DNA of 40,942 nt from an uncultured Candidatus Saccharibacteria bacterium (GTDB taxonomy: Bacteria; Patescibacteriota; Minisyncoccia; UBA6257; JACRHW01), in the NCBI GenBank assembly GCA_964388055.1, contig CAYLXU010000001.1, positions 17,120 through 58,061 on the forward strand, given 5' to 3'. The stretch's first letter is position 1. Each line of letters begins with the position of its first letter. Below the pieces are notes generated by a model, which saw only the letters and a list, made by a program, of their open reading frames with translations, was not told the DNA's origin and did not search any database. A program made the translations under genes and the position numbers. Positions 20,095-40,467 of the stretch are shown piece after piece.

Positions 20095-20101
20095 GATACG
20101 T

Positions 20102-22040
<1,939 letters not shown>

Positions 22041-22062
22041 CGATTACATGTAAAACAATGTG

Positions 22063-22092
22063 AAACACGCCATCTGGATGGCGTGTTTTTTG
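22063..22092 (+). terminator. Intrinsic terminator after fcl, copy 1
   Basis: AACACGCCAT-CTGG-ATGGCGTGTT is followed by TTTT. The hairpin lies inside the first 21 codons of the track ORF 22060. Confidence 0.7.
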
Positions 22093-22122
22093 TGGTGTGC
22101 CGAGTTAGGATATAATGTAGTT

Positions 22123-24594
22123 ATGAATGGTAAATTTGGAAAACGAGAAACGGTTTTTGTTCACGAGTCGCCGGAAGAGCTTATCGCGAAAGCAAAAATT
22201 GGTGGTTCTTTAGATCTCTCTTTATTGAGAGACGATGAAAAGAAAGAGGTATTACGATGGTATCGAAAACACGCGGATGATGGGGGGGTGTTGGGATATG
22301 AAGAGGCTACCGACTTTTTGGAGGAGTTTGTGAGGCACGATATGGTGCGTGATGCAGAGCTTGTGGGCTACATTAAGTCGGGAAACGTAGATGAGCATCG
22401 TCTTGGTGTATATTTGGGAGAGGCGGTAGAGCCGGGGAGATATGTGCAATCTTTTTATAAGTGTTGGTGGGCGTTTGGCACGGAAAGACGGGAAGAGTTC
22501 ATTTATAAATTTACAAAACAACATCCAGAACACGCAGAAATGGTGGTTCCGTTTGTAGACTTAAGTCGGGTATACATTGAAGAGAGAAAAGATGGTTCTG
22601 TCTCTCGGAAATCGATTCTAGAGGCGCGTTTTAAACGTATCGGCGATGCGAAGCGTCTCATAGAGGCGTTTTTGGCATTTTGTGATATTGATGAAAACTT
22701 GAGTTCGCGCATGTCATTTGGGATGCGTTTTCACTCCCGTCTTATTGAGCATTATTACGATACAAACCGATCAGTACTATATCCATATCTTGGAGAGTTA
22801 TATGACAAGGGGTTTATTGATGATGGAAAAATTGAATCCCTCCTTGGTGCATATCCGTATTCCTCAGGAAATGTTGATTATACACAGGAGGAAGAAAAAG
22901 AGATGAAAGTGCTTGAGGGAAAAATAAAAAAACTTGGAAACCCTTCGGACCTCGGTAAGTATGGTCACCCATCGGAGTTTTTTCCTAGAAAGGACGCTCT
23001 CCGCCTTGAAGAATTGAGAGATCAGGGAAAGTTGCGCGCAACGGAATACTTACTTACAAATTTTATTGCACATCAAAAAAAATTTAATTTCGATGTGCAG
23101 AAATTTTTAGGTGAATGTATTGAGTGGCGTGTACCTATTTTTGCGTTTGTGGATCAACTCGGTTTGAGTAAAAGGGAGGTGGGCATGCTTATTGCCCGGG
23201 CGAGAGTAGAAAATGGTGAGTTGCCCTTTTCTTTGGCAAACCTGGAGGATCTGCGGACACTTTTGGAGTTTAACGCGAAACACAAAAATGAGGAGGGTGT
23301 GGATCTTAAGAAGATGGTGCTAGATCTTCTAAAAGAAGATTTTAAGACTCAAGGAGTAAATTTATTTGCCAATCGGGGCATTGTGTTGAGAATCGATAGG
23401 GTACTTTCCTTATTTGGTAAAGAGGAGGGAGAAAGATTGTTGGCGGCTATTACGAGCGATGCCTCGGAATTGTGGTTATTTAATCCAAGGTATGTGTTGG
23501 AACATAACCTGATGACGTTTGAGGAGCTTATTGATAAAACGTCTTCAAATGAATATGAGTATGTGAGACACCTTGGAAAGTTGATGTATCACGCAAGGCT
23601 TCTTGATGTGGAACATGGTGTGGGCATGCATCTTTCTAATGTTGTGCAAAGAGCGAAAAGGATTATAGATACAAGTCCGGCGTTGTTTTTTGATGAAGAT
23701 ACTTCTCATGTAATTAATCAGATTTTTAACAGGGAGGAACGCGCTCTTTTTGTGGCGAATCATTTAAAACCGCCTGTGGATTCTTCTTTTTTGGGGAAAC
23801 TTCTTGTTTCTCAGGACTGGTCCCCATTTCGAAATGTGTGTCACGATCTTCTTGTTTCAGAACCGATATTGTTTGCCGAGACGTTTCGTTATCATGAAAA
23901 AGGGATCTATAGTGTCCTGAGTCGGAAGGAGGTGCGAGAGCTTGTTCTCACGAATGCGGCGCACATGGATTTTGAACATCTTGCATGGAGCGATCAATTT
24001 AAACGAGAGCTTGTTTCCCACGCTGCATACCAAAAGAGGTTTTTTGAGTGTGTGGTTGAGAGGGGTAGCGCACAGGTTCTTGTAGAATTTATAGGTCGAA
24101 TGGAGTTTCCAGAAGTAGAGAATTGGGAACAAACCAAAAAACAAATTAAAGAAAACGAGGATCGTATACGAACAGAGCAAGAGAGGCTTGAAAGGGTAAG
24201 CCCGGTGTCCGATGGAGAAATGAGAGCGGAGATTAAAAAGAGAATTATTGATCTGATAGAGAAGACAAAGGAATTGAAGAGGAAAAAAAGTCTCGGTGGT
24301 GATATTGTTGAAACAAGAAGGCTTGTTGGGGAATTCAAGCGTACGGCAACGGAGGTGATGAGAGGTGTTGCGGAGAAAGAAAAATTTTTTATATTCAAGG
24401 ATGGTGTTTTGGATGTGCTTGGGGAGATGGGGCGGGAAATAGCTCGTGGAGAGATTAGAGAGTATATAGAAATTCACCCAGAAGTGTTAATGAGATCAAG
24501 GTTTCACCCAAGACCTAGGCTTGTGTTTCGTGAGGTGTTAGGTGACGAGATGTTTTCAGAGCTTTTCATTGCCCACAAAGTCTACGACGAATAG
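22123..24594 (+). pseudogene. 3'-truncated copy of the giant orphan gene, created by the duplication joint
   Basis: It is identical to 32636-35079 up to ...DEMFSELF. It then reads 8 junction-derived codons (IAHKVYDE) in a non-native frame of holA sequence and stops at 24594. Confidence 0.7.
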
Positions 24595-25147: not shown

Positions 25148-25370
25148 ATGAGGCAGTTTTTGCGGCTCGTGACTTAAGACGAGCAGCTTTGTTGCGATGA
25201 ATTACGCCAGTTTTTACAGCCTTATCAATTGCTTTGTAGGCAAGAGGGAGTTCTTTTACAGAAGACATCTTTTTAAGCGCCGATTTAATGGCTGTCTTCT
25301 TTTGAATGTTGCGAGCTCTTCTTCTAAGGCTCTGGCGATATGCTTTTTGTGCTGATTTTGTATTCGGCAT
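25137..25370 (-). CDS. rpsT: 30S ribosomal protein bS20, copy 2
   Basis: Identical to 14624-14857. Confidence 0.9.
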   Translation of the reverse strand: MPNTKSAQKAYRQSLRRRARNIQKKTAIKSALKKMSSVKELPLAYKAIDKAVKTGVIHRNKAARLKSRAAKTASSKK

Positions 25371-25553
25371 AGTAAACAAAATTTAAAAATCGAAACTACA
25401 ATTTAAAACCAAAAAAAGTTTTTACTTGTTAATCTTAATAGTAAATACATTCGATCTTGTGTTAAGATATAACGTATTTTTCCGAAAAAGTAAAGGGGGT
25501 GGGTGGAGGTGATAGTCTGACACAAGAATACATAAGAATGTTATACTATATGT

Positions 25554-26243
25554 ATGTCACGCCGACTTAAATTACATCTTGACCCAAAAAAACGGTATCT
25601 TCAGGTGGCGTTAAATAGCACTCTCAAGGAGGCGCAGGATATTATTCGTCAATTGCCTGTGAGCGATCGTATTATCATTGAGGCGGGAACGCCACTTATT
25701 AAACAATATGGGGGAGAGGCAATACGGCAAGTTTATTCTTGGTGCAGAGAACATTTTTCCGGGTTTAACCCTTATGTTGTGGCAGACCTTAAAACAATGG
25801 ATCGAGGGGCAACAGAGGTAGAAATCGCTGCGAAGAGTGGTGCAAGCGCTGCAATTGCATTAGGTGTCGCTCCAATTGAGACGCTTAATTCATTTATAGA
25901 CGCCTGTGAGGTGCGAGGTCTTGATGCAATGATTGATATGATGAACGTGGAGTTTCCTCTTTCTGTTCTCCGTGGACTCAAAAGAGTTCCCCCTGTCGTA
26001 ATTTTACATCGGGGCGTTGATGAAGAATCTTTCAACAGAGAAAAACAGATACCTCTTCACGAAATCCGTCGTATTAAGGGGAACTATGATATCATGATTT
26101 CCATTGCGGGAGGGGATACATTACGAGAAGCGCAGCGGGCAATTTTTAACGATGCTGATATTGTAGTTATCTGGAAATCGGTGTTTAGTAGCACAAAAGA
26201 TACTGCCCAACTGGTTTCCGACTTTTTAAAAGTAACAAAATAA
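25554..26243 (+). CDS. 3-hexulose-6-phosphate synthase-like protein, copy 2
   Basis: Identical to 15041-15730. The same TGtTATACT element is at 25539-25547. Confidence 0.65.
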   Translation: MSRRLKLHLDPKKRYLQVALNSTLKEAQDIIRQLPVSDRIIIEAGTPLIKQYGGEAIRQVYSWCREHFSGFNPYVVADLKTMDRGATEVEIAAKSGASAAIALGVAPIETLNSFIDACEVRGLDAMIDMMNVEFPLSVLRGLKRVPPVVILHRGVDEESFNREKQIPLHEIRRIKGNYDIMISIAGGDTLREAQRAIFNDADIVVIWKSVFSSTKDTAQLVSDFLKVTK

Positions 26244-26263
26244 AATATATCTCCCGAAGAGGT

Positions 26264-26521
26264 TTACTTAAAATCGAACTCACCTTTTTCTGGTTTTTCT
26301 CCATCAACTTTGCTAAGAAGTATTCCTATCTCTTTCCCAATAGAAGAATATGAATCCATAAGCACCCCTTCGGATTCTATTGATAGTATTTTCATTCGAA
26401 CACCACTGCTTATAATCTCTTGTCCTTTTTGAAGGGTCCCTTTTTTAAGAACCCCTTCTACAAAATATCCTTCATCAAATTCCTTCAGGATATCTATGAT
26501 TTCAACACGTGTGGTTTCCAT
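26264..26521 (-). CDS. Small hypothetical protein, copy 2
   Basis: Identical to 15751-16008. Confidence 0.35.
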   Translation of the reverse strand: METTRVEIIDILKEFDEGYFVEGVLKKGTLQKGQEIISSGVRMKILSIESEGVLMDSYSSIGKEIGILLSKVDGEKPEKGEFDFK

Positions 26522-26529
26522 GGAGAGAT

Positions 26530-27228
26530 CTAGGGGGTGATGATGATGCCGATGTCGTTGGGTAGCTGAAGGGTGTAGGTTCCTATTTTAAACTTCGTGA
26601 GGGATTCGCGAAGTTTTTCTTTTAGTTCCTGTGGGGTAAGTGGAATAAGTAGTGGATCTTCTGTTCTAAAAAAAGACCCTTTTACTGTGGCAGGAAAGAG
26701 TATTTCATCATTTTCATTCCAGAGAACTGGTCGGTTGTCGTGCGTGTTTTGGAGGAGTGTTTGTATTTTTTTCCAATCCGAATCAAGGAATTCGTTTGTT
26801 TTCCAGTCGGCATGTGTAAAAAAGACGCTCGTAACATTTTGGTCCATGATGGGTGGTCTGCAGAATATTACTGGTTTTGTGTTTGCAAACCTTTTCTCTA
26901 CTTCATCTAGAAAGTGATCTTTGCAGTAAGAAGTTTCAATAATTTGGTCACTGGGATTGATAAAGCTGAGTGTAAAAAACGGCCTTCTCCACGGAAGAGA
27001 TTCACCGTATCCGCATATTTTTGGTTTGTTTTTCCACCAACGGAAAAAAACAAAGAGAAGAATAACAGAAAAGAAGGAAATTTCGGAAAATGACTTTAGA
27101 TCCAAAAATTGCTCTAAGCTCAAGGCGTTATAGACGGGTTCCATCATAAGGAACCAAACTATGCTAAAAAAGAAAAATAGTATGACGAATACGGCGATCT
27201 TGAACAACAAGACGATCAATCCTAACAT
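26530..27228 (-). CDS. Hypothetical membrane protein, copy 2
   Basis: Identical to 16017-16715. Confidence 0.5.
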   Translation of the reverse strand: MLGLIVLLFKIAVFVILFFFFSIVWFLMMEPVYNALSLEQFLDLKSFSEISFFSVILLFVFFRWWKNKPKICGYGESLPWRRPFFTLSFINPSDQIIETSYCKDHFLDEVEKRFANTKPVIFCRPPIMDQNVTSVFFTHADWKTNEFLDSDWKKIQTLLQNTHDNRPVLWNENDEILFPATVKGSFFRTEDPLLIPLTPQELKEKLRESLTKFKIGTYTLQLPNDIGIIITP

Positions 27229-27231
27229 GCG

Positions 27232-28002
27232 TTATTTTTTGGTTTTTAGGTAATCGGAAAGTGATTGGATGCCTTGGAGGAATTCGATAGGGAGGGCAAA
27301 AATAACTGTTTTTGAGGGATCTGGATTTATCTTCTCGATTGTTTCAAGTGTACGGAGTGAAAGCCCGCCGGGAACGGCGCTTAAACGTTCTGCTGCCTGG
27401 GAAAGTTTCTCTGCTGCTTCATATTCCCCTTGCGATTGAATAACGATTGCGCGTCGCTCGCGTTCTGATTCTGCCTGTTTTGCCATAATGCGTTTCATGT
27501 CTGCGGGGAGTTCAATGTCTTGGATTCTGATGTCAGTAATGTTGATACCCCACTCGGTAGTGATCATGTCAACGTCTTTTTTCATCTCCCCGGCAATCTT
27601 TTCTCGTTCTGAAAGAAGTGTATCAAGTTCGACGCCACCAATCACATCTCTAAGGGCCGCCTGTGCATACTGCACTATTGCGTTATAGTAGCTCCTAATT
27701 TTTAGTACTGCCTTGTCAGCATCAAGGACGTGGAAGTATACTACCGCGTTAATTCCTACGGGTACATTGTCTTTTGTAATGACTTCTTGTTGAGGAATTT
27801 CTGTGCTATTTACACGAACGTCTACAACGATCATTTCTTGAATACCAAAGAGGACGAAGATCCATGTGAGGCCCGGTCCTCGTACGCCAGCATACCTACC
27901 CAGCGTAAGCACAACTCCGCGTTCGTATTCTTTCACAACACGTAATCCTCGTAGGAGGATGTACACAACAAAAAGAACAATAAAAGTTATAAAAACTTGC
28001 AT
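27232..28002 (-). CDS. SPFH/band-7 family protein, copy 2
   Basis: Identical to 16719-17489. Confidence 0.85.
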   Translation of the reverse strand: MQVFITFIVLFVVYILLRGLRVVKEYERGVVLTLGRYAGVRGPGLTWIFVLFGIQEMIVVDVRVNSTEIPQQEVITKDNVPVGINAVVYFHVLDADKAVLKIRSYYNAIVQYAQAALRDVIGGVELDTLLSEREKIAGEMKKDVDMITTEWGINITDIRIQDIELPADMKRIMAKQAESERERRAIVIQSQGEYEAAEKLSQAAERLSAVPGGLSLRTLETIEKINPDPSKTVIFALPIEFLQGIQSLSDYLKTKK

Positions 28003-28234
28003 ATATGTTTAGTTAATTTGCTTATTATTAGTATAGCACACCTGGTTGTCACAATCTCGATAGATGGCGTGTGATCGACTTTTTATTGCCGGGCACATTT
28101 TACATTTAATGTTGTCCAAATTAGAGTATAGATAAGCAGAAATTCCTAACATCTAATTCTCAATTTCTAGCAAAACTTCAAATATAAAATTTTCAAATTG
28201 AAAATTTTTAAAATTAGAAATTGAAAGTTGTAGT

Positions 28235-28807
28235 ATGATTTATTCTCTTTCAGGAAAAATTCGGTCTGCTCAAGCCAACGCAATAGTTATTGAGACAGAA
28301 GGGGGGGTCGGGTATCTTGTGTTTGCCACCCCCGAAACAATATCTCGGGCCGTGATACACGAAAATGCGCGACTCTATACGTTTCTTCAAGTGCGTGAGG
28401 ACGCACTTGAACTGTATGGTTTTATCTCAGAAGAAGAACTCGCTTTTTTTAGACTTCTTACTACGGTATCGGGTGTGGGCCCCAAGGCGGCGATGGCAAT
28501 TTTGGGTGTTGCGGACATTCACACACTCCGTTCGGCAATCGCATCCGGAAAGGTAGAGATTTTGAGTCGTGCAGGAGGGATAGGAAAGAAAACAAGTGAA
28601 AGAATCATTGTTGAATTAAAAGAGAAGGTGGGAAAGAGCGATGAAAAGATTAAAGCATTTGAACTTGATCTTGATATACTCGAGGCGTTAAAATCTTTGG
28701 GGTATTCTGGGCAGGAGGCGCAGCGAGCAATTAAAGAGCTTTCTCCTGATATAATTAGTTTTTCAGAACGCCTTAAGGCTGCTCTAAAAATGCTCGGGAA
28801 GAAATGA
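28235..28807 (+). CDS. ruvA: RuvA, copy 2
   Basis: Identical to 17722-18294. Confidence 0.9.
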   Translation: MIYSLSGKIRSAQANAIVIETEGGVGYLVFATPETISRAVIHENARLYTFLQVREDALELYGFISEEELAFFRLLTTVSGVGPKAAMAILGVADIHTLRSAIASGKVEILSRAGGIGKKTSERIIVELKEKVGKSDEKIKAFELDLDILEALKSLGYSGQEAQRAIKELSPDIISFSERLKAALKMLGKK

Positions 28808-30150
28808 GTATCTTGTATAGATACATGATAAACAAACTACGATCATACTATCATTTAATGTGGGCATATCTCAGTGCTTTTTTTTCTGGTTTTCCATCGA
28901 GAAGGCTTACGGTTATTGGTATCACTGGTACGAAGGGGAAGACGACAACAACTGAACTCATGGTCCATGTACTAAGAAGCGCGGGGCACAAGGTTGTTTC
29001 TTCATCTGGGCTCCAATTTCGTATAGATGAGAAAGTAGTTCCAAATGATTTTAAGATGACGATGCCTGGACGTGGTTTTCTCCAGCGTCTCCTGGCGCGA
29101 GGGGTAAAAGAGAGGTGTGATGTTGCGATTCTTGAGGTGACATCGGAGGGGCTGGCCCAGTCTCGGCACTCCTATATTAATTTTGATGTTGCGGTGTTTT
29201 TAGGTATTCATGAGGAGCATCTAGAGAGGCATGGGGGGTTTGAGGGGTATAGAAGGGCAAAGGAGATGCTATTCCAAGCGCTTCAAGAGTCAGAAAAAAA
29301 GAAGAAAATTGCAGTTATAAATACTGATGATGCACACGCTCCAGAGTTTGTAAAATATCAGGTAGACGAAGTGTGGGGATTTGGGTTTAAAGGAAATGGA
29401 CTTAAAAAGGGCATGAAAATGCTCAAGGCAGATGGTGTGCAGTCCACTGCCGCTGGTTTGCAGTTTTATATAAACGGCAATCGCATCCTTTCAAGAATTC
29501 TTGGAGAATTTAATGTATATAATGTGCTTGCTGTAGTTGCAGTTGCGAAGGCTCTTCACATAGATGACGGAGTAATTCAAAGCGCTATCGAAACATTTTC
29601 TGGAATTCCAGGGAGAATGGAAGTAATTAATGGGAAAGGAATTCACGTGATTGTCGATTACGCGCATACGCCGGACTCTCTTGAATGGGTATATAAAGAG
29701 GCACGAAGAATTTTTAACCCTAGCTCGATGGTGTGTGTTCTTGGTGCGGCAGGGGGAGGAAGAGACACGTGGAAACGTTCGGTGTTTGGCGAACTTGCGG
29801 CAATGTACTGTGATGAAATAATTCTTGCAAATGAAGACCCGTACGACGAAAATCCAGAAAGCATTTTACAAGATATTAAAAAAGGAATTGATCAGTTTTC
29901 AAATAGAAAAGTAAAGTTGTCGGCATCCTCATTTAATTCATTCCAAGAGACTTCAAAGACACATACGAATGCGCGGGTGCACATTATTTTGGAAAGGCGT
30001 GAGGCCATTAAAAAAGCGATATCTCTTGCGAAACCAGGCGATGTTGTGGTAATTACGGGAAAGGGGGGTGAACGATGGATGGTGCTTGCGGGGGGAAAGA
30101 AGATTCCGTGGGACGACTCCGGTATTGTAAAAGAAGTAGTATATGCCTAG
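28804..30150 (+). CDS. murE: Mur ligase family protein, MurE-like, copy 2
   Basis: Identical to 18291-19637. Confidence 0.65.
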   Translation: MSILYRYMINKLRSYYHLMWAYLSAFFSGFPSRRLTVIGITGTKGKTTTTELMVHVLRSAGHKVVSSSGLQFRIDEKVVPNDFKMTMPGRGFLQRLLARGVKERCDVAILEVTSEGLAQSRHSYINFDVAVFLGIHEEHLERHGGFEGYRRAKEMLFQALQESEKKKKIAVINTDDAHAPEFVKYQVDEVWGFGFKGNGLKKGMKMLKADGVQSTAAGLQFYINGNRILSRILGEFNVYNVLAVVAVAKALHIDDGVIQSAIETFSGIPGRMEVINGKGIHVIVDYAHTPDSLEWVYKEARRIFNPSSMVCVLGAAGGGRDTWKRSVFGELAAMYCDEIILANEDPYDENPESILQDIKKGIDQFSNRKVKLSASSFNSFQETSKTHTNARVHIILERREAIKKAISLAKPGDVVVITGKGGERWMVLAGGKKIPWDDSGIVKEVVYA

Positions 30151-30607
30151 TAGTGAAAAAGGATTTCTCAAGAAAGATCTCTATAAAAAGGTGTACAATG
30201 TTGCGCCTATTTTTTGCGTAGATATAGTTGCGGTGTGCGGTAACGAGTTTCTCTTAGGAAAAAGGGAGAACGAGCCTGAGAAAGGAAAATGGTTTCTCCC
30301 TGGTGGGCGTATTTATAAGATGGAACCTTTTGAAAAAGCAGTAGCGCGAAAAGTAAAAGAGGAGTTGGGTATTCGTGTTGCAAAAAAGGATTTCAAATTT
30401 CTAACGCTTGGAACCGTGATGTCAAAAAAAGCTCCATTTGGTGATGGTCCGTTCCATGCAGCAATTGGAGTATATAAGGTAAATATAAAAAAGAAGGATC
30501 TAGTAAGGGCAGATTCTCAACACTCAGAACTAAGATGGTTTACCACGATAGATAAAAAGTGGCACCCTTATGTGAAAGAATCTCTTCACGCAGCAGGATT
30601 CAAATAA
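30143..30607 (+). CDS. NUDIX hydrolase, copy 2
   Basis: Identical to 19630-20094. Confidence 0.7.
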
Positions 30608-30614
30608 GATACGT

Positions 30615-32553
<1,939 letters not shown>

Positions 32554-32575
32554 CGATTACATGTAAAACAATGTG

Positions 32576-32605
32576 AAACACGCCATCTGGATGGCGTGTT
32601 TTTTG
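32576..32605 (+). terminator. Intrinsic terminator after fcl, copy 2
   Basis: Identical to 22063-22092. Confidence 0.7.
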
Positions 32606-32623
32606 TGGTGTGCCGAGTTAGGA

Positions 32624-32629
32624 TATAAT
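32624..32629 (+). promoter_or_regulatory. TATAAT placed 6 nt before the giant-gene ATG (leaderless geometry)
   Basis: TATAAT is at 32624-32629, followed by GTAGTT and ATG at 32636. The same element is at 22111-22116 in unit 1. The -35 is weak. Confidence 0.4.
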
Positions 32630-32635
32630 GTAGTT

Positions 32636-35600
32636 ATGAATGGTAAATTTGGAAAACGAGAAACGGTTTTTGTTCACGAGTCGCCGGAAGAGCTTATCGC
32701 GAAAGCAAAAATTGGTGGTTCTTTAGATCTCTCTTTATTGAGAGACGATGAAAAGAAAGAGGTATTACGATGGTATCGAAAACACGCGGATGATGGGGGG
32801 GTGTTGGGATATGAAGAGGCTACCGACTTTTTGGAGGAGTTTGTGAGGCACGATATGGTGCGTGATGCAGAGCTTGTGGGCTACATTAAGTCGGGAAACG
32901 TAGATGAGCATCGTCTTGGTGTATATTTGGGAGAGGCGGTAGAGCCGGGGAGATATGTGCAATCTTTTTATAAGTGTTGGTGGGCGTTTGGCACGGAAAG
33001 ACGGGAAGAGTTCATTTATAAATTTACAAAACAACATCCAGAACACGCAGAAATGGTGGTTCCGTTTGTAGACTTAAGTCGGGTATACATTGAAGAGAGA
33101 AAAGATGGTTCTGTCTCTCGGAAATCGATTCTAGAGGCGCGTTTTAAACGTATCGGCGATGCGAAGCGTCTCATAGAGGCGTTTTTGGCATTTTGTGATA
33201 TTGATGAAAACTTGAGTTCGCGCATGTCATTTGGGATGCGTTTTCACTCCCGTCTTATTGAGCATTATTACGATACAAACCGATCAGTACTATATCCATA
33301 TCTTGGAGAGTTATATGACAAGGGGTTTATTGATGATGGAAAAATTGAATCCCTCCTTGGTGCATATCCGTATTCCTCAGGAAATGTTGATTATACACAG
33401 GAGGAAGAAAAAGAGATGAAAGTGCTTGAGGGAAAAATAAAAAAACTTGGAAACCCTTCGGACCTCGGTAAGTATGGTCACCCATCGGAGTTTTTTCCTA
33501 GAAAGGACGCTCTCCGCCTTGAAGAATTGAGAGATCAGGGAAAGTTGCGCGCAACGGAATACTTACTTACAAATTTTATTGCACATCAAAAAAAATTTAA
33601 TTTCGATGTGCAGAAATTTTTAGGTGAATGTATTGAGTGGCGTGTACCTATTTTTGCGTTTGTGGATCAACTCGGTTTGAGTAAAAGGGAGGTGGGCATG
33701 CTTATTGCCCGGGCGAGAGTAGAAAATGGTGAGTTGCCCTTTTCTTTGGCAAACCTGGAGGATCTGCGGACACTTTTGGAGTTTAACGCGAAACACAAAA
33801 ATGAGGAGGGTGTGGATCTTAAGAAGATGGTGCTAGATCTTCTAAAAGAAGATTTTAAGACTCAAGGAGTAAATTTATTTGCCAATCGGGGCATTGTGTT
33901 GAGAATCGATAGGGTACTTTCCTTATTTGGTAAAGAGGAGGGAGAAAGATTGTTGGCGGCTATTACGAGCGATGCCTCGGAATTGTGGTTATTTAATCCA
34001 AGGTATGTGTTGGAACATAACCTGATGACGTTTGAGGAGCTTATTGATAAAACGTCTTCAAATGAATATGAGTATGTGAGACACCTTGGAAAGTTGATGT
34101 ATCACGCAAGGCTTCTTGATGTGGAACATGGTGTGGGCATGCATCTTTCTAATGTTGTGCAAAGAGCGAAAAGGATTATAGATACAAGTCCGGCGTTGTT
34201 TTTTGATGAAGATACTTCTCATGTAATTAATCAGATTTTTAACAGGGAGGAACGCGCTCTTTTTGTGGCGAATCATTTAAAACCGCCTGTGGATTCTTCT
34301 TTTTTGGGGAAACTTCTTGTTTCTCAGGACTGGTCCCCATTTCGAAATGTGTGTCACGATCTTCTTGTTTCAGAACCGATATTGTTTGCCGAGACGTTTC
34401 GTTATCATGAAAAAGGGATCTATAGTGTCCTGAGTCGGAAGGAGGTGCGAGAGCTTGTTCTCACGAATGCGGCGCACATGGATTTTGAACATCTTGCATG
34501 GAGCGATCAATTTAAACGAGAGCTTGTTTCCCACGCTGCATACCAAAAGAGGTTTTTTGAGTGTGTGGTTGAGAGGGGTAGCGCACAGGTTCTTGTAGAA
34601 TTTATAGGTCGAATGGAGTTTCCAGAAGTAGAGAATTGGGAACAAACCAAAAAACAAATTAAAGAAAACGAGGATCGTATACGAACAGAGCAAGAGAGGC
34701 TTGAAAGGGTAAGCCCGGTGTCCGATGGAGAAATGAGAGCGGAGATTAAAAAGAGAATTATTGATCTGATAGAGAAGACAAAGGAATTGAAGAGGAAAAA
34801 AAGTCTCGGTGGTGATATTGTTGAAACAAGAAGGCTTGTTGGGGAATTCAAGCGTACGGCAACGGAGGTGATGAGAGGTGTTGCGGAGAAAGAAAAATTT
34901 TTTATATTCAAGGATGGTGTTTTGGATGTGCTTGGGGAGATGGGGCGGGAAATAGCTCGTGGAGAGATTAGAGAGTATATAGAAATTCACCCAGAAGTGT
35001 TAATGAGATCAAGGTTTCACCCAAGACCTAGGCTTGTGTTTCGTGAGGTGTTAGGTGACGAGATGTTTTCAGAGCTTTTTCGAGACCACATTAAAACGTT
35101 AGTATTTTGGAACGATCGATACGGAAGGGGGCTCTTTGAGATGCGAGATCTTCCTCTAGATCTTCAAAAAGACGCCGCCACCTTAAACCCCTTCTTTAAG
35201 ATTCATGAAAAGGATAGTTTGCAGGAAGACTACTACGCGCATTGTCTTAGATGGTTTTCTTCATACAGTTTTTACCCGATTTTTGAAAAGCGTCTCATGC
35301 AAATTGCAAGGGAGCAGCAAAATGTTTTTGGTCAACAAACATCGCTTAAGTCCTTTACTCCAAACAAAGAATTTCATTCTCTTGGAAACTCTTTACTTCT
35401 TCTTGAGTCTTCCCCATTCGCGCGTCAGTACAGAGATGACATACTTGCACTCTCACCAAGGGAACAGGAGGTTACAATTTCTCTCTTTTCCTTCTTATCT
35501 TTTTATCATCTCGACGAACATGTGGTGTCACACCTTGAGGGAAAGAGCTTTGATTCTGCTCAGCAGGAGGCCCATGATGTGATAAGCCGCTTCTTACAAA

Positions 35601-36925
35601 AAATGTTTGAAATAAAGGAGGATCTCGGACCGGTCGCATCAATTCCTATTCAAGTTGTCCGCGCTCTCTCTATCTATTACAACAAGAGTTGTAGCGAGCA
35701 TCTGGCTATGAGTAGTGCGTTCAGAAAAGCAATAGTACCTATTCTTAAAGGAAATTACGAAAGTTGGCGTGCGTGGGGTACAGATGGTGAAGTGCAAGAA
35801 GAGGGCAAGGATGCAGCACTCATGCAGATGAAGAAGGATAAACTTATTCCAGAGTCGCTGAATAGAGAACAATACGAATCTTGGATCAGGGAGGACGGGA
35901 TGGATTTTTCTGAGGCTTTTTCGTACCAGATTACCGATGTGCGTTCTGGAATAAGAGACGTGATCTCCCGTGCGATGGTAGATCAACACATTGAGAAGGG
36001 TGAGCTCGAAACTGATTTTTTGGCACTCGAGAACAGATACGAACAACTCATCGCACCACTTAAGGAGATGGTAGCACGCCAGAAAGTGTTGCGGGATATT
36101 TCAAAGGGCCGCGATCTTACAGATGAGGAGAGGGGAGACTATGAGGGGCTTAAGCAGAGGATTCAAGAATATAAGGCGGGACACGAAGAAGAGTTTTCAA
36201 GTATTCAGGCACAGCAATATCTTGCAAGGCTAAGGAGTCTTACACTTGAAGAACTTGAATTACAAAATATTGTTCTTGGAAAAAAGAAAATTTCCTTTAC
36301 TGATGTGTTTAAGGTGCTACAAGGGCATTTTAAGGAAAAACAAGATTTTCTCTCGGACATACAAAGAATAAGAGACGTGCTGCAGCGAGCATATCAGAGT
36401 ATATTTGGGGGAGAAAAAGTGTCCCGATCACGTTTAATGGTCTCGGATGGTGTAGATCTGGAGACACATGTGCTTATTGGAGAAAAACCGGTCGCATCCT
36501 GCCAACATTATGATGGGTCGGATCTTAACTTTGGCCTTCTTTCTTATATATCCGACCCAGGAGTAAAGATCATTCAAGTGCGTGATGAACAAGGTGCACT
36601 TGTGGCGCGGGCGGTGCTACGCATGGTGGAAGATAATGCCGGACAACCTCAGCTTTTTATGGAACGTGTGTATTCAGTAAATACGCATCCGAAGGTAAAG
36701 GAGGCAATGGTGCGTTTTGCATTACGCAAGGCAGAGATATTGGGGGTAACGTGTTATACCCACGAAGGGGTATTTGCAGACATGTTTGAAATGGGTTCTG
36801 AACTCACAGTATTGCACAATCGTGGAAGCAGGAGCCCTTATGTGTACACCGATGCTGGGGGTGGTAAGATGCCAGATGGTGTGTTTGAGGTAAAAGCGTT
36901 TCAGATTCTCGTGGCAAAGGAATAA
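32636..36925 (+). CDS. Giant orphan protein (1429 aa), function unknown
   Basis: A single uninterrupted ORF. The start is moved to MNGKFGKRE because the first 21 track codons are the fcl terminator hairpin. The protein is mostly helical or charged, with a coiled-coil-like stretch (EQTKKQIKENEDRIRTEQERLER...). The C-terminal ~170 aa look like a globular alpha/beta module (CQHYDGSDLNFGLLSYISDPGVKIIQVRDEQGALVARAVLRMVED...). I found no catalytic motif I can name. Confidence 0.75.
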   Translation: MNGKFGKRETVFVHESPEELIAKAKIGGSLDLSLLRDDEKKEVLRWYRKHADDGGVLGYEEATDFLEEFVRHDMVRDAELVGYIKSGNVDEHRLGVYLGEAVEPGRYVQSFYKCWWAFGTERREEFIYKFTKQHPEHAEMVVPFVDLSRVYIEERKDGSVSRKSILEARFKRIGDAKRLIEAFLAFCDIDENLSSRMSFGMRFHSRLIEHYYDTNRSVLYPYLGELYDKGFIDDGKIESLLGAYPYSSGNVDYTQEEEKEMKVLEGKIKKLGNPSDLGKYGHPSEFFPRKDALRLEELRDQGKLRATEYLLTNFIAHQKKFNFDVQKFLGECIEWRVPIFAFVDQLGLSKREVGMLIARARVENGELPFSLANLEDLRTLLEFNAKHKNEEGVDLKKMVLDLLKEDFKTQGVNLFANRGIVLRIDRVLSLFGKEEGERLLAAITSDASELWLFNPRYVLEHNLMTFEELIDKTSSNEYEYVRHLGKLMYHARLLDVEHGVGMHLSNVVQRAKRIIDTSPALFFDEDTSHVINQIFNREERALFVANHLKPPVDSSFLGKLLVSQDWSPFRNVCHDLLVSEPILFAETFRYHEKGIYSVLSRKEVRELVLTNAAHMDFEHLAWSDQFKRELVSHAAYQKRFFECVVERGSAQVLVEFIGRMEFPEVENWEQTKKQIKENEDRIRTEQERLERVSPVSDGEMRAEIKKRIIDLIEKTKELKRKKSLGGDIVETRRLVGEFKRTATEVMRGVAEKEKFFIFKDGVLDVLGEMGREIARGEIREYIEIHPEVLMRSRFHPRPRLVFREVLGDEMFSELFRDHIKTLVFWNDRYGRGLFEMRDLPLDLQKDAATLNPFFKIHEKDSLQEDYYAHCLRWFSSYSFYPIFEKRLMQIAREQQNVFGQQTSLKSFTPNKEFHSLGNSLLLLESSPFARQYRDDILALSPREQEVTISLFSFLSFYHLDEHVVSHLEGKSFDSAQQEAHDVISRFLQKMFEIKEDLGPVASIPIQVVRALSIYYNKSCSEHLAMSSAFRKAIVPILKGNYESWRAWGTDGEVQEEGKDAALMQMKKDKLIPESLNREQYESWIREDGMDFSEAFSYQITDVRSGIRDVISRAMVDQHIEKGELETDFLALENRYEQLIAPLKEMVARQKVLRDISKGRDLTDEERGDYEGLKQRIQEYKAGHEEEFSSIQAQQYLARLRSLTLEELELQNIVLGKKKISFTDVFKVLQGHFKEKQDFLSDIQRIRDVLQRAYQSIFGGEKVSRSRLMVSDGVDLETHVLIGEKPVASCQHYDGSDLNFGLLSYISDPGVKIIQVRDEQGALVARAVLRMVEDNAGQPQLFMERVYSVNTHPKVKEAMVRFALRKAEILGVTCYTHEGVFADMFEMGSELTVLHNRGSRSPYVYTDAGGGKMPDGVFEVKAFQILVAKE

Positions 36926-36956
36926 AAAAGGACGGCTTATGCCGTCCCGTCTTTTC
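36924..36956. terminator. Bidirectional intrinsic terminator between the giant gene and the Ubl gene
   Basis: AAAAAA-GGACGGC-TTAT-GCCGTCC-CGTCTTTTCG. The stem is at 36930-36947, with an A-run on one side and a T-rich tail on the other. Confidence 0.7.
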
Positions 36957-36969: not shown

Positions 36970-37188
36970 TTAGCCCTTTACTCCAGATTCCTTCAGGAAT
37001 TCCAACTCATCTTCCTGGCCCGTAAGCCGGAACTCGGTTGGGTCGTTCACCTGTTTGCCATCCACGAGGACCGTTTCATGGTCGGGAGTTACGTTGAGCA
37101 TTGCAGAAACCATGTTCTGCACCTCTTCCACTGTCTTGCCACCCACTTCTTCCACGGTGATGCTGTTTGCGCCGCACACTACCGTCAT
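36970..37188 (-). CDS. Ubiquitin-like beta-grasp protein (ThiS/MoaD-like, 72 aa) ending in a C-terminal Gly
   Basis: MTVVCGANSITVEEVGGKTVEEVQNMVSAMLNVTPDHETVLVDGKQVNDPTEFRLTGQEDELEFLKESGVKG-stop has ThiS-like spacing (G.TV.E, V.VDG..V, L..DE.EF). GGAGGTGA (37200-37193) is correctly spaced for ATG 37188 and not for the track start at 37206. Confidence 0.7.
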   Translation of the reverse strand: MTVVCGANSITVEEVGGKTVEEVQNMVSAMLNVTPDHETVLVDGKQVNDPTEFRLTGQEDELEFLKESGVKG

Positions 37189-37260: not shown

Positions 37261-37968
37261 TCAATAGTTTGGATTGAGGTAGTCGTAGACTTTTCTTTTT
37301 ACAGGCCGCACGTTTCCTGTTTTAAGGTCAAAGTACTGTTCCGTAAATGGGATTGCGTCACCTCTCGACCAGAGGGTAAGCGCATTAAGCATGAGTGCCG
37401 CGATGGTAAGATTTACCGTAAGAATTTGTGGCGACCCTGCTTCTATAAGCTCATCACATCCACGGTGTGCTGGGTTGCGATCTTTTGGAAATCCAATCTC
37501 TCGATGATATGCGGTAAGGGGAGGGGTTACATCCTTTCCGTCTCGGCGTTCATATACTTGGATATTTCCATCATACTCATCGTTACCTCCTGAGATGAGG
37601 AGCCCATTTTTAAGCATTCCAACACAATCTGAAAGAACTTTCCGTGTTGCATGATTATCAACGCAAGCGAGCACAACATCTCCCTCACGAATGTAGACGT
37701 AGGAGTTGTCTTCATCGACGTATTTTGCCTTTGAGGAAATTTCCAACTCACCAAAGATGAGTTTAAGTCGTTCCGTGGTGGCAACCGCTTTATTTATACC
37801 AATTTCTCCTACGCGTTGCCGTTCTCGGTTTTTCTCTTCATATTGATCTCCATCAACAAGAACAAGGCGATTTGAGACACGTTTTCGATCTGCATAGGCA
37901 ATCATTCTGCAAAGTGGGTCTATGAGACACGTTCCGATACCACCAAGTCCGATTACAACAGTTCTCAT
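37261..37968 (-). CDS. E1-like adenylyltransferase (ThiF/MoeB/HesA family), minimal 235-aa form
   Basis: MRTVVIGLGGIGTCL is the GxGxxG loop. LVDGDQYEEKNRERQ and VLACVDNHATRKVL match the E1 nucleotide/Mg motifs (D.D.V...N..RQ; D..DN...R). Its ATG at 37968 overlaps the JAB stop as ATGA. The 78 track codons upstream lie inside the JAB gene. Confidence 0.8.
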   Translation of the reverse strand: MRTVVIGLGGIGTCLIDPLCRMIAYADRKRVSNRLVLVDGDQYEEKNRERQRVGEIGINKAVATTERLKLIFGELEISSKAKYVDEDNSYVYIREGDVVLACVDNHATRKVLSDCVGMLKNGLLISGGNDEYDGNIQVYERRDGKDVTPPLTAYHREIGFPKDRNPAHRGCDELIEAGSPQILTVNLTIAALMLNALTLWSRGDAIPFTEQYFDLKTGNVRPVKRKVYDYLNPNY

Positions 37969-38768
37969 GATTTGCGCCTTCCTTTCTTTTTGCGTGCGTG
38001 CTTTGCTTCCTGAAGCCTCGTGCGGAGAGGCGTGAGAAGACCAAGTACATTCCAAGACTTTTCTGGTGTAATCTGTTCGAGCCACTCCTGTGGAGGAGTA
38101 TATGATCTCGGGAGCATGTTTTCCTGATTGTTCAGATAAAACGTATGATTTGGATCTGGTACGCGGATTTTCGAGGGCACCTTTACGATTCCCCGTATCC
38201 ACTCTTCCGGATTTAGAGGGAATCGTGTTCCATTGATCGCTACCTGAACACTCAGTTCAAAATTGCGAGACCTTCCTGTCTTACCAAGTCGACCAAAGGT
38301 TCCATGAATACCATCAATACTTTTTTCATCACACACATCAGTGCTTGAATGAAATGCGCTTCCGGAACCATGTGAGTGAAACGTCCCAATCAGGAGTTCC
38401 TCGGGATTGCGACGCGGTATGTCATACGTCGCACGCCCAGCGCTTACGCGTTGAGGTGGGACAGAAATGCGATACTTATTCGTTGTGGTGTTAATCCAAA
38501 GGAGAACGACTGCTTCTGTTCCGTGTGTGTTGTATACCCATGCAAAGAGGCGAAGTATTTCGAGTAGAATCTTTTTTGGAATAATCGGAAAAAGCGGGGT
38601 AAGAGTAGGAGTCTGTGGTTCAAGAGTACTAATCTCAGGTACGGGGACAGTTGCCTCCCAATATCGCATCTTCTTTCTTACAAAACATCCATTTCTTGCC
38701 AGAATAAAACAGTTACCATTTTCAGTGGGAGGAGTTTCTCCCTGATGTTTGATGAAAATCGGATACAT
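37965..38768 (-). CDS. JAB/JAMM (MPN+) metalloprotease
   Basis: FHSHGSGSAFHSSTD is an exact H-x-H-x7-S-x2-D (H131, H133, S141, D144), with an upstream Glu in HGTEAVVLL. The SD AAGGAG lies 8 nt upstream. The start overlaps the upstream stop as TGATG. Confidence 0.85.
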   Translation of the reverse strand: MYPIFIKHQGETPPTENGNCFILARNGCFVRKKMRYWEATVPVPEISTLEPQTPTLTPLFPIIPKKILLEILRLFAWVYNTHGTEAVVLLWINTTTNKYRISVPPQRVSAGRATYDIPRRNPEELLIGTFHSHGSGSAFHSSTDVCDEKSIDGIHGTFGRLGKTGRSRNFELSVQVAINGTRFPLNPEEWIRGIVKVPSKIRVPDPNHTFYLNNQENMLPRSYTPPQEWLEQITPEKSWNVLGLLTPLRTRLQEAKHARKKKGRRKS

Positions 38769-40054
38769 CAGTGTTCTCCTTTCTTTGAGTAGTAGGGTGT
38801 TTCTACGAGGGCGGATATAAGTGCGTTTAAAAGTTGTGTGGAGATTTCCTTGAGTTCTTGCATCAATTCAATTTTCCCTTCTCCCGAGATCGTATCAAGT
38901 CGCTTCTGTGTGCGTTCTGTAAGATCTGTTGGTACAGTAAAGCGGGCCTCGAGGTTATAGAGAAGTTCCTCTAACGTCTCACGAAATCGTTCTGTCATGA
39001 GGTCTTTTGTTGTCTGAAGTACTGTCTCAAACCGCTCTTTTCGTCTGTTTGCATAGTGTATTCCTCCAGCAAATTTTTTTTCGACGAGCGTTCTTATAGA
39101 ATGTGGGTACTGAATCCACGGAAACGCTACAATTGTTTCCGGATTTTTTTCAGACATCTCTTCCCAGTTTCGAAAAAATCCCGCTTCAGTAAGATGTTCT
39201 TTTTTTAGGTATCCTCTATAATCACTTCCGTGAGATAACAAAAATTCGCTTTGCCAGAAATGGGAGATAAGTCTTTCATGCCAGTCCTTGTCTCGCAGAG
39301 AAAAGTCAGGATAGTTTCCGAGACACACATCACCGCCGCTACAGTTAGGGAGACTAGGTAAGAAGATGGCATCTTCTTCACTCTCCACTGGGGTGGATCG
39401 GAAAAAAGCCATGAGCTGATGAAATCTGTTGTTTATGAAAGAGACAAGAAAATAAATCCAGGGAAATGACAACCTTCGGCGGGCCCCGGATATTTTAATA
39501 GTTCTTCTTTGGGGTGGTTCTTCAATACAGAATAATGTGATATGTTCATATCCAGTTTCAGTTTCCCACACAAACCGGGTTCCGGGGGGCAGCATTCCTG
39601 AGCTGCGAATACCGTTTGTTGTTTTTCCTTGTTCACGATCTTCCTGTTCGAGAAAACGTTTGATTTCCGCAAAACATTCTTCAAGAAGTGGTCGCATGAA
39701 GGCTTCTCCGTCTGCTCCTATTTTTTTGATAAGTTCCATACGAATATTCCGTTCTCCTGTAGTAAGGATTTGCTCTAGATCTGGCCTCGTGCGTTCAAGC
39801 ATTGAGCGAACTAGGTTCCACACATTGTTGTGCATCCATGCATTAAGAGTTGTTTCAAGGGTGTTTCGTACAATCAAAGGGAGCGCTTCTGTGAGCGACC
39901 CCTTAGGGGACATTTCAATCGTCTTCTTTGGAAAAACACCTAGAACGTGTTCTGTTTTTTCCTCAGGGCACCATCCCATTCCTTGCCTATCAACAAGGGC
40001 TTGGTTGAGCAGTTCGTTTGGGAGTAGCACTGTAGAACATTCTTTTTTACGCAT
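38768..40054 (-). CDS. 428-aa orphan, candidate E2/UBC-like conjugating enzyme with helical N- and C-terminal extensions
   Basis: It is the first gene of the cassette, with the SD AGGAGAA 8 nt upstream. Its centre reads as beta-strand-like segments (FVWETETGYEHITLFCIEEPP, RRLSFPWIYFLVSF, QLMAFFRS) followed by LPSLPNCSGGDVCLGNYPD (residues 232-250). That loop resembles the UBC HPN-x-x-x-G-x-[IV]-C-L active-site loop. Confidence 0.4.
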   Translation of the reverse strand: MRKKECSTVLLPNELLNQALVDRQGMGWCPEEKTEHVLGVFPKKTIEMSPKGSLTEALPLIVRNTLETTLNAWMHNNVWNLVRSMLERTRPDLEQILTTGERNIRMELIKKIGADGEAFMRPLLEECFAEIKRFLEQEDREQGKTTNGIRSSGMLPPGTRFVWETETGYEHITLFCIEEPPQRRTIKISGARRRLSFPWIYFLVSFINNRFHQLMAFFRSTPVESEEDAIFLPSLPNCSGGDVCLGNYPDFSLRDKDWHERLISHFWQSEFLLSHGSDYRGYLKKEHLTEAGFFRNWEEMSEKNPETIVAFPWIQYPHSIRTLVEKKFAGGIHYANRRKERFETVLQTTKDLMTERFRETLEELLYNLEARFTVPTDLTERTQKRLDTISGEGKIELMQELKEISTQLLNALISALVETPYYSKKGEH

Positions 40055-40089
40055 GTTTTATTCTCCTCTCTTCGTCCTTGGTCTCTACA

Positions 40090-40103
40090 GCTTCATGTGA
40101 AGC
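40090..40103. promoter_or_regulatory. Palindrome GCTTCA-TG-TGAAGC in the cassette 5' leader (candidate operator or leader hairpin)
   Basis: It has 6-bp arms with a 2-nt spacer and lies between the predicted transcription start (about 40130) and the SD of the first cassette gene. Confidence 0.3.
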
Positions 40104-40136
40104 CGGGCTTTGGTTTTCAAGGCATGGTCTATGCAT

Positions 40137-40165
40137 GTATTATCACGATTTCTCATATTGGTCAA
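40137..40165 (-). promoter_or_regulatory. Cassette promoter TTGACC-17 nt-TAATAC with extended -10 (TGa)
   Basis: The minus strand has TTGACC (40165-40160), a 17-nt spacer ending in TGA, and TAATAC (40142-40137). This gives a 5' UTR of about 75 nt. Confidence 0.5.
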
Positions 40166-40185
40166 TAAATTTTTCTGTTTTTTCT

Positions 40186-40215
40186 TTGACACCAACTGAT
40201 ACCATTTGATACCAT
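40186..40215 (+). promoter_or_regulatory. Divergent promoter of the HTH gene, TTGACA-18 nt-(TGa)TACCAT, 6 nt before the ATG
   Basis: TTGACA is at 40186-40191 and TGATACCAT at 40207-40215. A second direct copy of TGATACCAT is at 40197-40205. AGGAAT then precedes ATG 40222. Confidence 0.45.
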
Positions 40216-40221
40216 AGGAAT

Positions 40222-40467
40222 ATGGGAAAAATTCAGCCTGAAAATGTGTATACTACACAAGAGGCGCAGGATTATTTAAAGATAAGTGTAAGTACCATGA
40301 AACGTTTACTGAAGAATGGTATTATTCGCGCAAACAAAATTGGTGGGCAATACCGTATCATGGGCAGGGAGTTGTTACGTCTTGTTTCGCCAGAGATGGA
40401 AGAAAAAGCCGCAAACTTGTATCAAAGAGTAAAGCGAAAAACAAAAGCCGCCATACAAGATTGGTGA
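40222..40467 (+). CDS. Excisionase-family (MerR-like) helix-turn-helix DNA-binding protein
   Basis: VYTTQEAQDYLKISVSTMKRLLKNGIIRANKIGGQYRIMGRELLRLV matches the excisionase-type HTH pattern (t..EaA.yL.vs..tv.rl...G.i.a.kiG..yRi....l). Confidence 0.75.
   Translation: MGKIQPENVYTTQEAQDYLKISVSTMKRLLKNGIIRANKIGGQYRIMGRELLRLVSPEMEEKAANLYQRVKRKTKAAIQDW

Follow-up and report, generated by a model that had tools for sequence, protein, structure and literature searches.

Introduction

Five types of operon that unite E1-like (ubiquitin-activating) enzymes, JAB peptidases and usually E2-like (ubiquitin-conjugating) proteins were described in bacteria by Iyer, Burroughs and Aravind in 2006 (PMC1779556). 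Types 6b (Cap2/Cap3 of CBASS, an anti-phage signalling system built on cyclic oligonucleotides), 6c and Bil, and 6e (Bub) have already been characterised. In type 6d, a ubiquitin-like protein (Ubl) with a C-terminal glycine is encoded together with an E1, a JAB protein whose JAB-N domain carries a conserved arginine and a conserved tryptophan, an E2-like protein with a conserved cysteine, no classical histidine and an absolutely conserved histidine downstream, and a separate, rapidly diverging alpha-helical protein (PMC1779556). This type is the PRTRC (ParB-Related, ThiF-Related Cassette; TIGR03734-03742), whose E2-like component is PRTRC protein B, or Prok-E2_D. E2-less trios of JAB, ThiS-like and E1 proteins also exist in sulfur metabolism (PMC1779556). 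Here we describe a four-gene operon in a window of 40,942 nucleotides, the whole stretch of DNA that was analysed, from a probable Candidate Phyla Radiation (CPR) bacterium. The product of its first gene, a 428-residue protein, is best read as a divergent E2 that would carry the Ubl on Cys244. The idea as such is not new, the E2-like family and operon type 6d both having been predicted in 2006 (Iyer et al., PMC1779556). Judged from sequence, the window cassette is distantly homologous to the PRTRC/6d core and would work like it, and it stands outside membership on profile scores, gene content, position of the Ubl gene, the downstream histidine and the size of the E2-like protein.

Results

An invariant cysteine in a short loop

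The minus-strand translation of nucleotides 39317-39352 is LPNCSGGDVCLG, residues 235-246 of the 428-residue open reading frame (ORF), which bears out the loop that a first-pass annotation of the window had placed there. The spacing of seven residues from Asn237 to Cys244 and the leucine in place of the histidine of the canonical His-Pro-Asn (HPN) motif were likewise as it had described them. Conservation was counted over 141 extracted homologous core domains sharing 20-35% identity with the query. Cys244 and Pro198 were found in all 141 cores, and the remaining near-invariant core residues were Pro181, Phe271 and Trp297 (140 each), Trp267 (138), Glu178 (137), Pro156 (136) and Arg184 (133). 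The annotation had also asked whether the proline and asparagine of the loop are invariant alongside the cysteine; Pro236 (110/141, 78%) and Asn237 (113/141, 80%) are strongly conserved and not invariant, position 237 being also occupied by 12 aspartates and 9 histidines, and Leu235 was present in 119 cores.

The family loop follows the consensus L-P-N-[IVL]-x(4-7)-V-C-[LFM]-[GP], with leucine, phenylalanine or methionine at position 245 and glycine or proline at position 246. The spacing from asparagine to cysteine has its mode at 8 (59 sequences), and 25 sequences including the query have a spacing of 7. Cys238, which had been put forward as an alternative thioester residue, is ruled out as a catalytic candidate because that position is isoleucine, valine, leucine or methionine in 115 of the 141 cores; the cysteine is idiosyncratic to the window protein. 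His265 of the window protein is shared by 26 family members. We also observed that E178, P181, R184, P198, the FW-x-S-x-F segment (residues 266-271) and W297, all within 39062-39607, are conserved like the predicted catalytic cysteine.

Family membership and architecture of the E2-like protein

An exhaustive phmmer/HMMER search of 1.84 billion cluster representatives (clusters at 50% identity) returned 578 representatives at E ≤ 1e-3, 109 at E ≤ 1e-10 and 17 at E ≤ 1e-30, the shared region spanning approximately residues 145-330. The protein had initially been labelled an orphan. A word-indexed homology search, which found one relative only (93% identity), would on its own have wrongly backed that label, and the exhaustive search overturned it. 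With the single window protein as query, no relatives were found in GTDB genomes or IMG/VR, and tblastn of the window protein and of its homologue P0079 returned nothing in plasmids (72,556) or phages; the IMG/VR loci described below were recovered using a narrower family alignment (A6).

The family links to Prok-E2_D (PF14460), which 27 of 39 diverse cores matched at E < 0.1 (best 3e-9), and no other family recurred. Three long homologues reach its gathering threshold of 25 bits, namely P0025 (27.3 bits), P0139 (25.8) and P0058 (25.0), and these match the query at 1.5e-20 to 2e-9. The window protein itself scores 13.1 bits at full length (E 0.078, over residues 223-273, on the loop) and 15.2 bits with the core (E 0.018); since its homologues link to Prok-E2_D, we regard it as a sub-threshold relative of that family. 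Similarly, TIGR03737 (“PRTRC system protein B”, NCBIfam) was matched by 14 of the 39 cores (best 4e-5), with no match for the window protein. Aligned with the family profile by hhalign, a plasmid-borne Methylomonas protein annotated as PRTRC protein B gave a probability of 82% (P 1e-5, 99 columns) and was in register throughout, with cysteine on cysteine and the E-x-x-P-x-x-R, F-P and F-x-S-x-F segments superimposed. No PADLOC defence-system model, BilB included, fitted the E2-like protein, and none fitted the JAB.

An AlphaFold2 model built with a 60-sequence alignment reached a mean predicted local distance difference test (pLDDT) score of 86, with most of the core above 90; a single-sequence model (pLDDT 36) was discarded. 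In the accepted model, a beta-hairpin (residues 26-53) and a very long helix (54-142) precede strands 159-166, 171-179, 182-188, 191-197, 199-207 and 210-219. An extended segment with the loop follows, then helices 258-268, 278-286, 290-303 and 306-309, and the C-terminal part consists of a strand (315-319) and a helical hairpin (320-418). The order of strands, loop and helices is as the first-pass annotation had it, but not its count of four strands: the model has six, which reduce to four long ones if the kinks at invariant Pro181 and Pro198 are not counted as breaks. The C-terminal helical extension, put at about 170 residues, shrinks to about 100 (320-418) because helices 258-309 lie inside the conserved core. 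Many homologues have 420-520 residues, many others 650-800 with the core near the C-terminus, some are barely more than the core, and the longest reach 880. The helical arms are variable additions, given that core-only forms are among these length classes. The E3-like role once suggested for the arms is speculation, and the arms vary too much to count as conserved in the family.

The operon encodes a candidate E1, Ubl and deubiquitinase

The E2-like gene is the first of four on the minus strand, followed by the genes for a JAB peptidase, a ThiF-type E1 and a small ORF. The start of the JAB gene overlaps the stop of the E2-like gene (TGATG), the start of the E1 gene overlaps the JAB stop (ATGA), and a spacer of 72 nt with a strong Shine-Dalgarno sequence separates the E1 gene from the small ORF. 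The best NCBIfam match of the JAB protein was PRTRC_A (E 1e-12 over nearly the full profile, 48.1 bits against a cut-off of 101.8 bits). Its N-terminus contains RYWEA and weakly matches DUF2016 (E 0.027), and the arginine and tryptophan are not kept in two related loci (L003 and L004). For the E1, the best NCBIfam match was PRTRC_ThiF (E 7e-14 over the full profile, 51.8 bits against 144.75), with MoeB and ThiF next, and most of its closest relatives on plasmids (26-30% identity) carry the annotation PRTRC ThiF. Its motifs comprise GLGGIG at residue 7, CVDN with Asp104, and a conserved Cys171 in GCDE (37456-37458).

A four-sequence profile of the small ORF aligned with ubiquitin over alpha1 and the “IPPDQQRLIFAGKQLED” region (hhalign 44%, P 2.3e-4), compared to 1.4% with ThiS and 0.3% with genuine PRTRC-C, and its homologues gave repeated sub-threshold Pfam matches to the beta-grasp families ThiS and TGS. 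In its sequence features, the small ORF behaves like a Ubl.

Gene order was assessed over the loci readable through the small-ORF position. The order E2-like, JAB, ThiF, small ORF was found in L001 (the 93% relative), L003, L004, L088/L089 and all ten IMG/VR loci, and in L002 and L090/L091 it was unchanged up to the contig end. In the IMG/VR loci, the hidden Markov models of the partners gave E-values of 1e-72 to 1e-84 (E1), 1e-42 to 1e-70 (JAB) and 1e-16 to 1e-24 (Ubl). Every locus read retains the E1 cysteine together with the motifs of the E1 and the JAMM motif of the JAB. The Ubl ends exactly in G-x-K-G in the window, L001, L003, L004, L088 and eight of the ten viral-contig loci. The other two run past the glycine, by eight residues in L097 (8396-8740; ...GVKG-FEKMCFFY*) and by one in L100 (10813-11328; ...GRKG-R*). 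Such extended Ubls may be precursors that depend on processing by the JAB peptidase, and they would fit a JAB that exposes the glycine in the way BilC does for BilA.

Further variation was seen among the viral-contig loci. Two tandem E2-like paralogues stand before the JAB gene in L092 (5695-7976), L093 (5743-8069) and L095 (5749-7778), and the LPN...C loop is retained in both paralogues of L092 and L095. A second, weakly ThiF-like ORF (E 3e-4 to 2e-6) lies just after the Ubl gene in L094 (11813-12351), L098 (9987-10925) and L099 (7550-8443), and a GLGSLGG Rossmann start was seen by eye in the ORF just after the Ubl gene of L101 (11222-12124). Several of the viral contigs are 120-527 kb long, among them those of L093 (527 kb) and L097 (459 kb). 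Their viral nature rests on the IMG/VR classification, because the flanks of the cassette match accessory PHROGs only.

Comparison with canonical E2s and alternative explanations

The core was compared with UBE2D2 (UbcH5b; sequence identical to 1ur6_A) and with a five-member E2 profile, all members of which were confirmed as UQ_con. The hhalign probability was 30% (P 5.5e-4) against UBE2D2 and 48.5% (P 1.8e-4, 38 columns) against the five-member profile. Each comparison yielded one alignment, which placed the proline and asparagine of the loop on Pro76-Asn77, Cys244 on Cys85 and helix 258-268 on alpha2, so that the window loop is aligned to HPNINSNGSICLD of UbcH5b. When the columns of the E2 profile were shuffled 300 times, scores averaged 12.4 (standard deviation (SD) 2.1) and did not exceed 19.8; the real profile scored 31.1, about 9 SD above the mean, and the reversed profile 12.6. 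The resemblance to the ubiquitin-conjugating (UBC) profile is not a chance effect, since none of the shuffles reached the observed score. Canonical E2s (Pfam UQ_con) share with the window family the P-N-[IV]-x(n)-[IV]-C-[LM] loop, the modal spacing of 8 and a helix about 14 residues further on. The family differs from them in its larger beta-sheet, the leucine in place of histidine, extra invariant residues and long helical extensions. The order of secondary-structure elements (strands 159-219, cysteine loop, helices 258-309) is compatible with a UBC fold.

Several observations weigh against reading the protein as an E2. The similarity to UBC is local, limited to 38 columns at a probability below 50%, and the window protein itself stays under the Pfam and NCBIfam cut-offs. 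The confident model found no significant match in the Protein Data Bank (PDB) with Foldseek, which listed no E2, UEV or RWD structure, and the UBC fold foreseen by the first-pass annotation was not recovered; the best hit (E 0.065), rotavirus VP8*, is not read as homology (TM-score below 0.2). The core profile likewise had no match at E ≤ 10 among 177,635 PDB sequences, which means that a relationship to any E2 of known structure is not detectable, and the PDB sequence matches of the full-length protein or profile are helical noise (apolipoproteins, designed bundles). Six strands precede the loop in the model instead of four, the HPN histidine position is leucine in 119 of 141 cores, and E178, P181, R184, P198, FW-x-S-x-F and W297 have no counterpart in canonical E2s, so that an E2 model leaves them unexplained. 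The histidine after the cysteine, absolutely conserved in type 6d, is present in only 26 of the 141 cores. A limited literature search found no experimental work on any Prok-E2_D/PRTRC_B or 6d/PRTRC member. Foldseek against predicted viral structures (BFVD) gave three significant matches (A0A7R7G2H5, A0A6J5MFC0 and A0A6J5P0Y8; E 1e-7 to 2e-6), uncharacterised proteins of uncultured tailed phages and the only significant structural neighbours of the model.

An alternative explanation is that the core is a non-UBC fold or enzyme with a kept or convergent HPN-Cys-like loop, serving the trio of E1, Ubl and JAB in another way, either as a ligase joining the E2 and E3 functions, with additional catalytic residues (E178, R184, S269), or as an acceptor or adaptor protein. 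The lack of a PDB E2 among the Foldseek matches of a confident model, the three phage proteins as sole neighbours, the 38-column limit of the UBC similarity, the six strands and the invariant E178, R184, P181, P198 and W297 would all fit such a protein. However, the only alignment that hhalign returned has the E2 active-site register exactly and scores far above the shuffles, and the family merges with Prok-E2_D, which Pfam places in the UBC clan. No invariant histidine or aspartate that could complete a Cys-protease or transglutaminase triad was found in the 141 cores, and a carrier cysteine is required in an operon that encodes an E1, a Ubl and a deubiquitinase (DUB) and offers no second candidate for the E2. 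We therefore consider a non-UBC core unlikely. A more far-reaching version holds that the protein is a one-protein E2/E3 hybrid of unrecognised fold that retains no more than an HPN-Cys-like loop and has a catalytic set of its own (E178, R184, FW-x-S-x-F, W297), its variable helical arms choosing the targets, in a Ubl-conjugation system, unannotated but widespread among CPR bacteria and huge phages, that would serve phage-host conflict; this is rather unlikely.

Under a sulfur-carrier reading of the ThiS/MoaD-ThiF type, in which a JAB takes part as in CysO-Mec or QbsE-QbsD, the Ubl would be thiocarboxylated and Cys244 would act in sulfur relay or biosynthesis. The small single-domain ThiF/MoeB-type E1 with MoeB and ThiF as its next-best matches, the weak ThiS matches among the Ubl homologues, the E2-less JAB/ThiS-like/E1 trios of sulfur metabolism (Iyer et al. 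2006, PMC1779556) and a rhodanese gene about 2 kb upstream in L088 point in this direction. On the other hand, that rhodanese gene is not conserved elsewhere, no conserved cysteine, thiamine, molybdopterin or siderophore genes stand beside the cassette in any locus, and a rhodanese domain is lacking from the E1. Instead of G-G, the Ubl has K-G at its end, its profile is nearer to ubiquitin than to ThiS, and the cysteine protein belongs to a predicted E2 family, which makes a sulfur carrier improbable. A chance resemblance of the loop in a structural or non-enzymatic helical protein could be suspected from the window protein alone, which reaches Prok-E2_D at E 0.078 and nothing in the PDB. It is effectively refuted by the invariance of Cys244 in 141 cores at 20-35% identity, by an operon conserved in every locus read far enough and by the score that 0 of 300 shuffles attained. 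Overall, the evidence favours a divergent E2 that carries the Ubl on Cys244 over the other readings, and we consider it probable: the invariant cysteine, the links to Prok-E2_D and PRTRC protein B, the UBC register and the operon speak for this proposal of the first-pass annotation, while the missing fold match in the PDB does not. Sequence and context back homology to E2s, and the structural search did not confirm a UBC fold.

Relation to PRTRC and other bacterial Ubl systems

The window cassette resembles PRTRC in its E2-like protein with an invariant cysteine and no HPN histidine, its N-extended JAB, its E1 of the ThiF type (about 235 residues) and its Ubl of about 70 residues ending in K-G. 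The gene order B-A-ThiF is common to both, as seen in a genuine PRTRC cassette (L085), and for three out of the four window proteins, the best profile match of the protein or its family is a PRTRC model. Nevertheless, the scores lie far below the PRTRC cut-offs, with no match for protein B (131 bits), 48.1 versus 101.8 bits for protein A and 51.8 versus 144.75 bits for ThiF. Compared to PRTRC, the window cassette has no ParB, no PRTRC D, E or F and no separate alpha-helical protein, and its Ubl gene is the last instead of the first. The E2-like protein has 428 residues (relatives up to 880) with helical arms, whereas the PRTRC counterpart has about 230-256. The window cassette and its relatives lie in a chromosome, probably that of a CPR bacterium, as well as on IMG/VR viral contigs, whereas PRTRC is found on integrative and conjugative elements (ICEs) and plasmids. 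Beyond the K-G terminus, no profile similarity was found between the Ubl and genuine PRTRC-C, and a 406-residue hypothetical protein beside a genuine PRTRC-B was rejected as the source of the helical arms (hhalign 0.6%). Similar to the 6d description, the window cassette combines a C-terminal glycine on the Ubl, a JAB, a rhodanese-free E1 and a cysteine E2-like protein without the classical histidine, but it has no separate helical gene, the helical arms being fused to the E2-like core.

Types I and II of the bacterial ISG15-like (Bil) systems (BilA Ubl, BilB E2, BilC JAB, BilD E1) cover the same four functions, also without an E3; their JAB can pre-process the Ubl, and their E2 is thought to choose targets directly. 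The PADLOC models for BilB and BilC did not match and BilD reached E 0.018 only. The Bil E1 is an IAD-AAD-CYS protein of about 450 residues compared to the 235-residue single-domain E1 of the window, the window Ubl is a single small domain, and the Bil order is Ubl-E2-DUB-E1 instead of E2-DUB-E1-Ubl. Membership in Bil was rejected on the missing BilB and BilC matches, the single-domain E1 and the gene order.

Type II CBASS Cap2/Cap3 (6b) likewise has a homodimeric MoeB/ATG7-like E1 with a cysteine in the crossover loop, a cysteine E2 and a JAB, and PADLOC “E1-E2” models weakly match the window E1. However, Cap2 is an E2-E1 fusion and its substrate is the CD-NTase, not a Ubl, whereas the window genes are separate; with no E2-E1 fusion and no CD-NTase or effector gene in the neighbourhood, type II CBASS was rejected. 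Bub (6e/DUF6527) is also a bacterial pathway of E1, E2 and Ubl with diverged enzymes, but it uses Ser/Tyr oxyester intermediates and the DUF6527 serine protease. The conserved cysteines of the window E1 and E2-like protein and the JAMM peptidase speak against membership in Bub.

Genomic setting and neighbouring features

The coordinates of the cassette and its surroundings are collected in Table 1. A likely operon promoter on the minus strand (TTGACC...GATAAT, 15-nt spacer) is a consensus match that the promoter scan did not call, and a promoter-like site for the divergent helix-turn-helix (HTH) gene (TTGACA-18-TACCAT, plus strand, 40186-40215) is likewise a consensus match. Among the loci, the HTH_17 gene is kept beside the cassette in L001 only, and its product could be a local regulator or a mobile-element remnant.

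Table 1 Features of the four-gene cassette and its flanks in the window
Feature	Position	Strand	Basis or remarks
428-aa E2-like protein	38768..40054	-	ORF; AGGAG Shine-Dalgarno 8 nt before ATG
Conserved Prok-E2_D/PRTRC_B-like core, residues 150-331	39062..39607	-	homologue alignments, profile matches
Cys-bearing loop	39317..39352	-	residues 235-246, L-P-N-C-S-G-G-D-V-C-L-G
Cys244 codon, predicted Ubl-thioester (catalytic) cysteine	39323..39325	-	141/141 conserved
267-aa JAB/JAMM metallopeptidase, JAB-N-like N-terminus (RYWEA at residue 35)	37965..38768	-	Pfam Prok-JAB E 4e-8
JAMM motif HSHGSGSAFHSSTD, residues 131-144	38337-38378	-	fits HxHx7Sx2D
235-aa single-domain ThiF/MoeB-type E1	37261..37968	-	Pfam ThiF E 6e-20
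72-aa putative Ubl, ends ...ESGVKG then stop	36970..37188	-	start = ATG at 37188, preceded by GGAGGTGA
Strong bidirectional intrinsic terminator (GGGACGGC-ATAA-GCCGTCC and T-run)	36929..36948	.	ends operon and convergent 1450-aa ORF
Divergent intergenic region	40055..40221	.	consensus promoter matches only
81-aa HTH_17/excisionase-family DNA-binding protein	40222..40467	+	Pfam HTH_17 E 1e-11; NCBIfam excisionase-family domain
1450-aa ORF	32573..36925	+	no Pfam/NCBIfam match; converges on Ubl gene, terminator in common

The window is a chromosome segment with PolA, RuvA/B, YebC, a PilB-type ATPase and SodA, in which the cassette lies among the HTH_17 gene, the 1450-aa ORF and polysaccharide and housekeeping genes; the related loci are likewise found among housekeeping genes. 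The best matches of RuvB (63% or less) are metagenome-assembled genomes of Patescibacteria/CPR. A protein with two lamin-tail domains (3977-5155, minus strand) and a PilB-type type IV pilus ATPase (6459-8135, minus strand) were also noted, which fit a CPR/Patescibacteria origin. The 1450-aa ORF is kept beside the cassette in L001 (1429 aa), but it was rejected as a conserved partner, being absent there in L003, L004, L088 and the viral loci, and is probably not part of the system. The window also contains a perfect head-to-tail tandem duplication (14044-24571 and 24557-35084, period 10,513 bp), whose unit comprises RuvA, a Mur ligase, a NUDIX protein, two epimerases and the 5' part of the giant ORF, and the first copy of that ORF (22060..24594, 844 aa) is cut at the duplication junction. 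Because L001 has a single copy, the duplication is an assembly artefact or very recent.

Discussion

The 428-residue protein is likely the E2-equivalent Ubl carrier of a self-contained four-gene cassette, a diverged sister of PRTRC/6d. This reading is based on homology, conservation, gene order, translational coupling and intact motifs, from which we infer the chemistry, targets and role. Gly72 of the window Ubl would already be exposed, and the C-terminal extension of some relatives would be removed by the JAB peptidase. Acting probably as a homodimer, the E1 would adenylate Gly72 by means of GLGGIG and Asp104. A Ubl thioester would then probably form on Cys171, which is located where E1s of the MoeB, ATG7 and Cap2 types have the cysteine of their crossover loop. 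The Ubl would then be handed to Cys244 of the E2-like protein. In canonical E2s the HPN asparagine stabilises the oxyanion, and Asn237 of the L-P-N loop would act as its equivalent. Transfer to a target amine would proceed without a separate E3; binding of the E1 or the target would fall most plausibly to the variable helical arms, and the JAB peptidase would reverse or edit the conjugates. The cassette may have a role in phage-host or mobile-element conflict, a proposal made by analogy to Bil, CBASS and Bub and because of the IMG/VR viral contigs and the occurrence of PRTRC on ICEs and plasmids.

Type II CBASS, Bil and Bub have been characterised since 2022, and each gave unexpected chemistry and antiviral roles. 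The finding leaves the known picture of E2-like enzymes in bacteria unchanged, but it gives 6d/PRTRC a large apparent sister group of at least 578 clusters at 50% identity, which is missed by the thresholds of Pfam, NCBIfam and PADLOC. This group has a strict four-gene order, an E2-like protein with expanded helical arms and a small MoeB-like E1, and its members were found both on large contigs classed as viral by IMG/VR (putative huge phages) and in the chromosome of what is probably a CPR bacterium. For testing, the cassette would offer a compact full set of E1, E2, Ubl and DUB, which together amount to about 1,000 residues. It raises the questions of how a minimal E1 without a ubiquitin-fold domain would hand the Ubl over to the E2, whether a Leu-Pro-Asn loop is catalytically equal to His-Pro-Asn, and which targets such systems may have in very small genomes.

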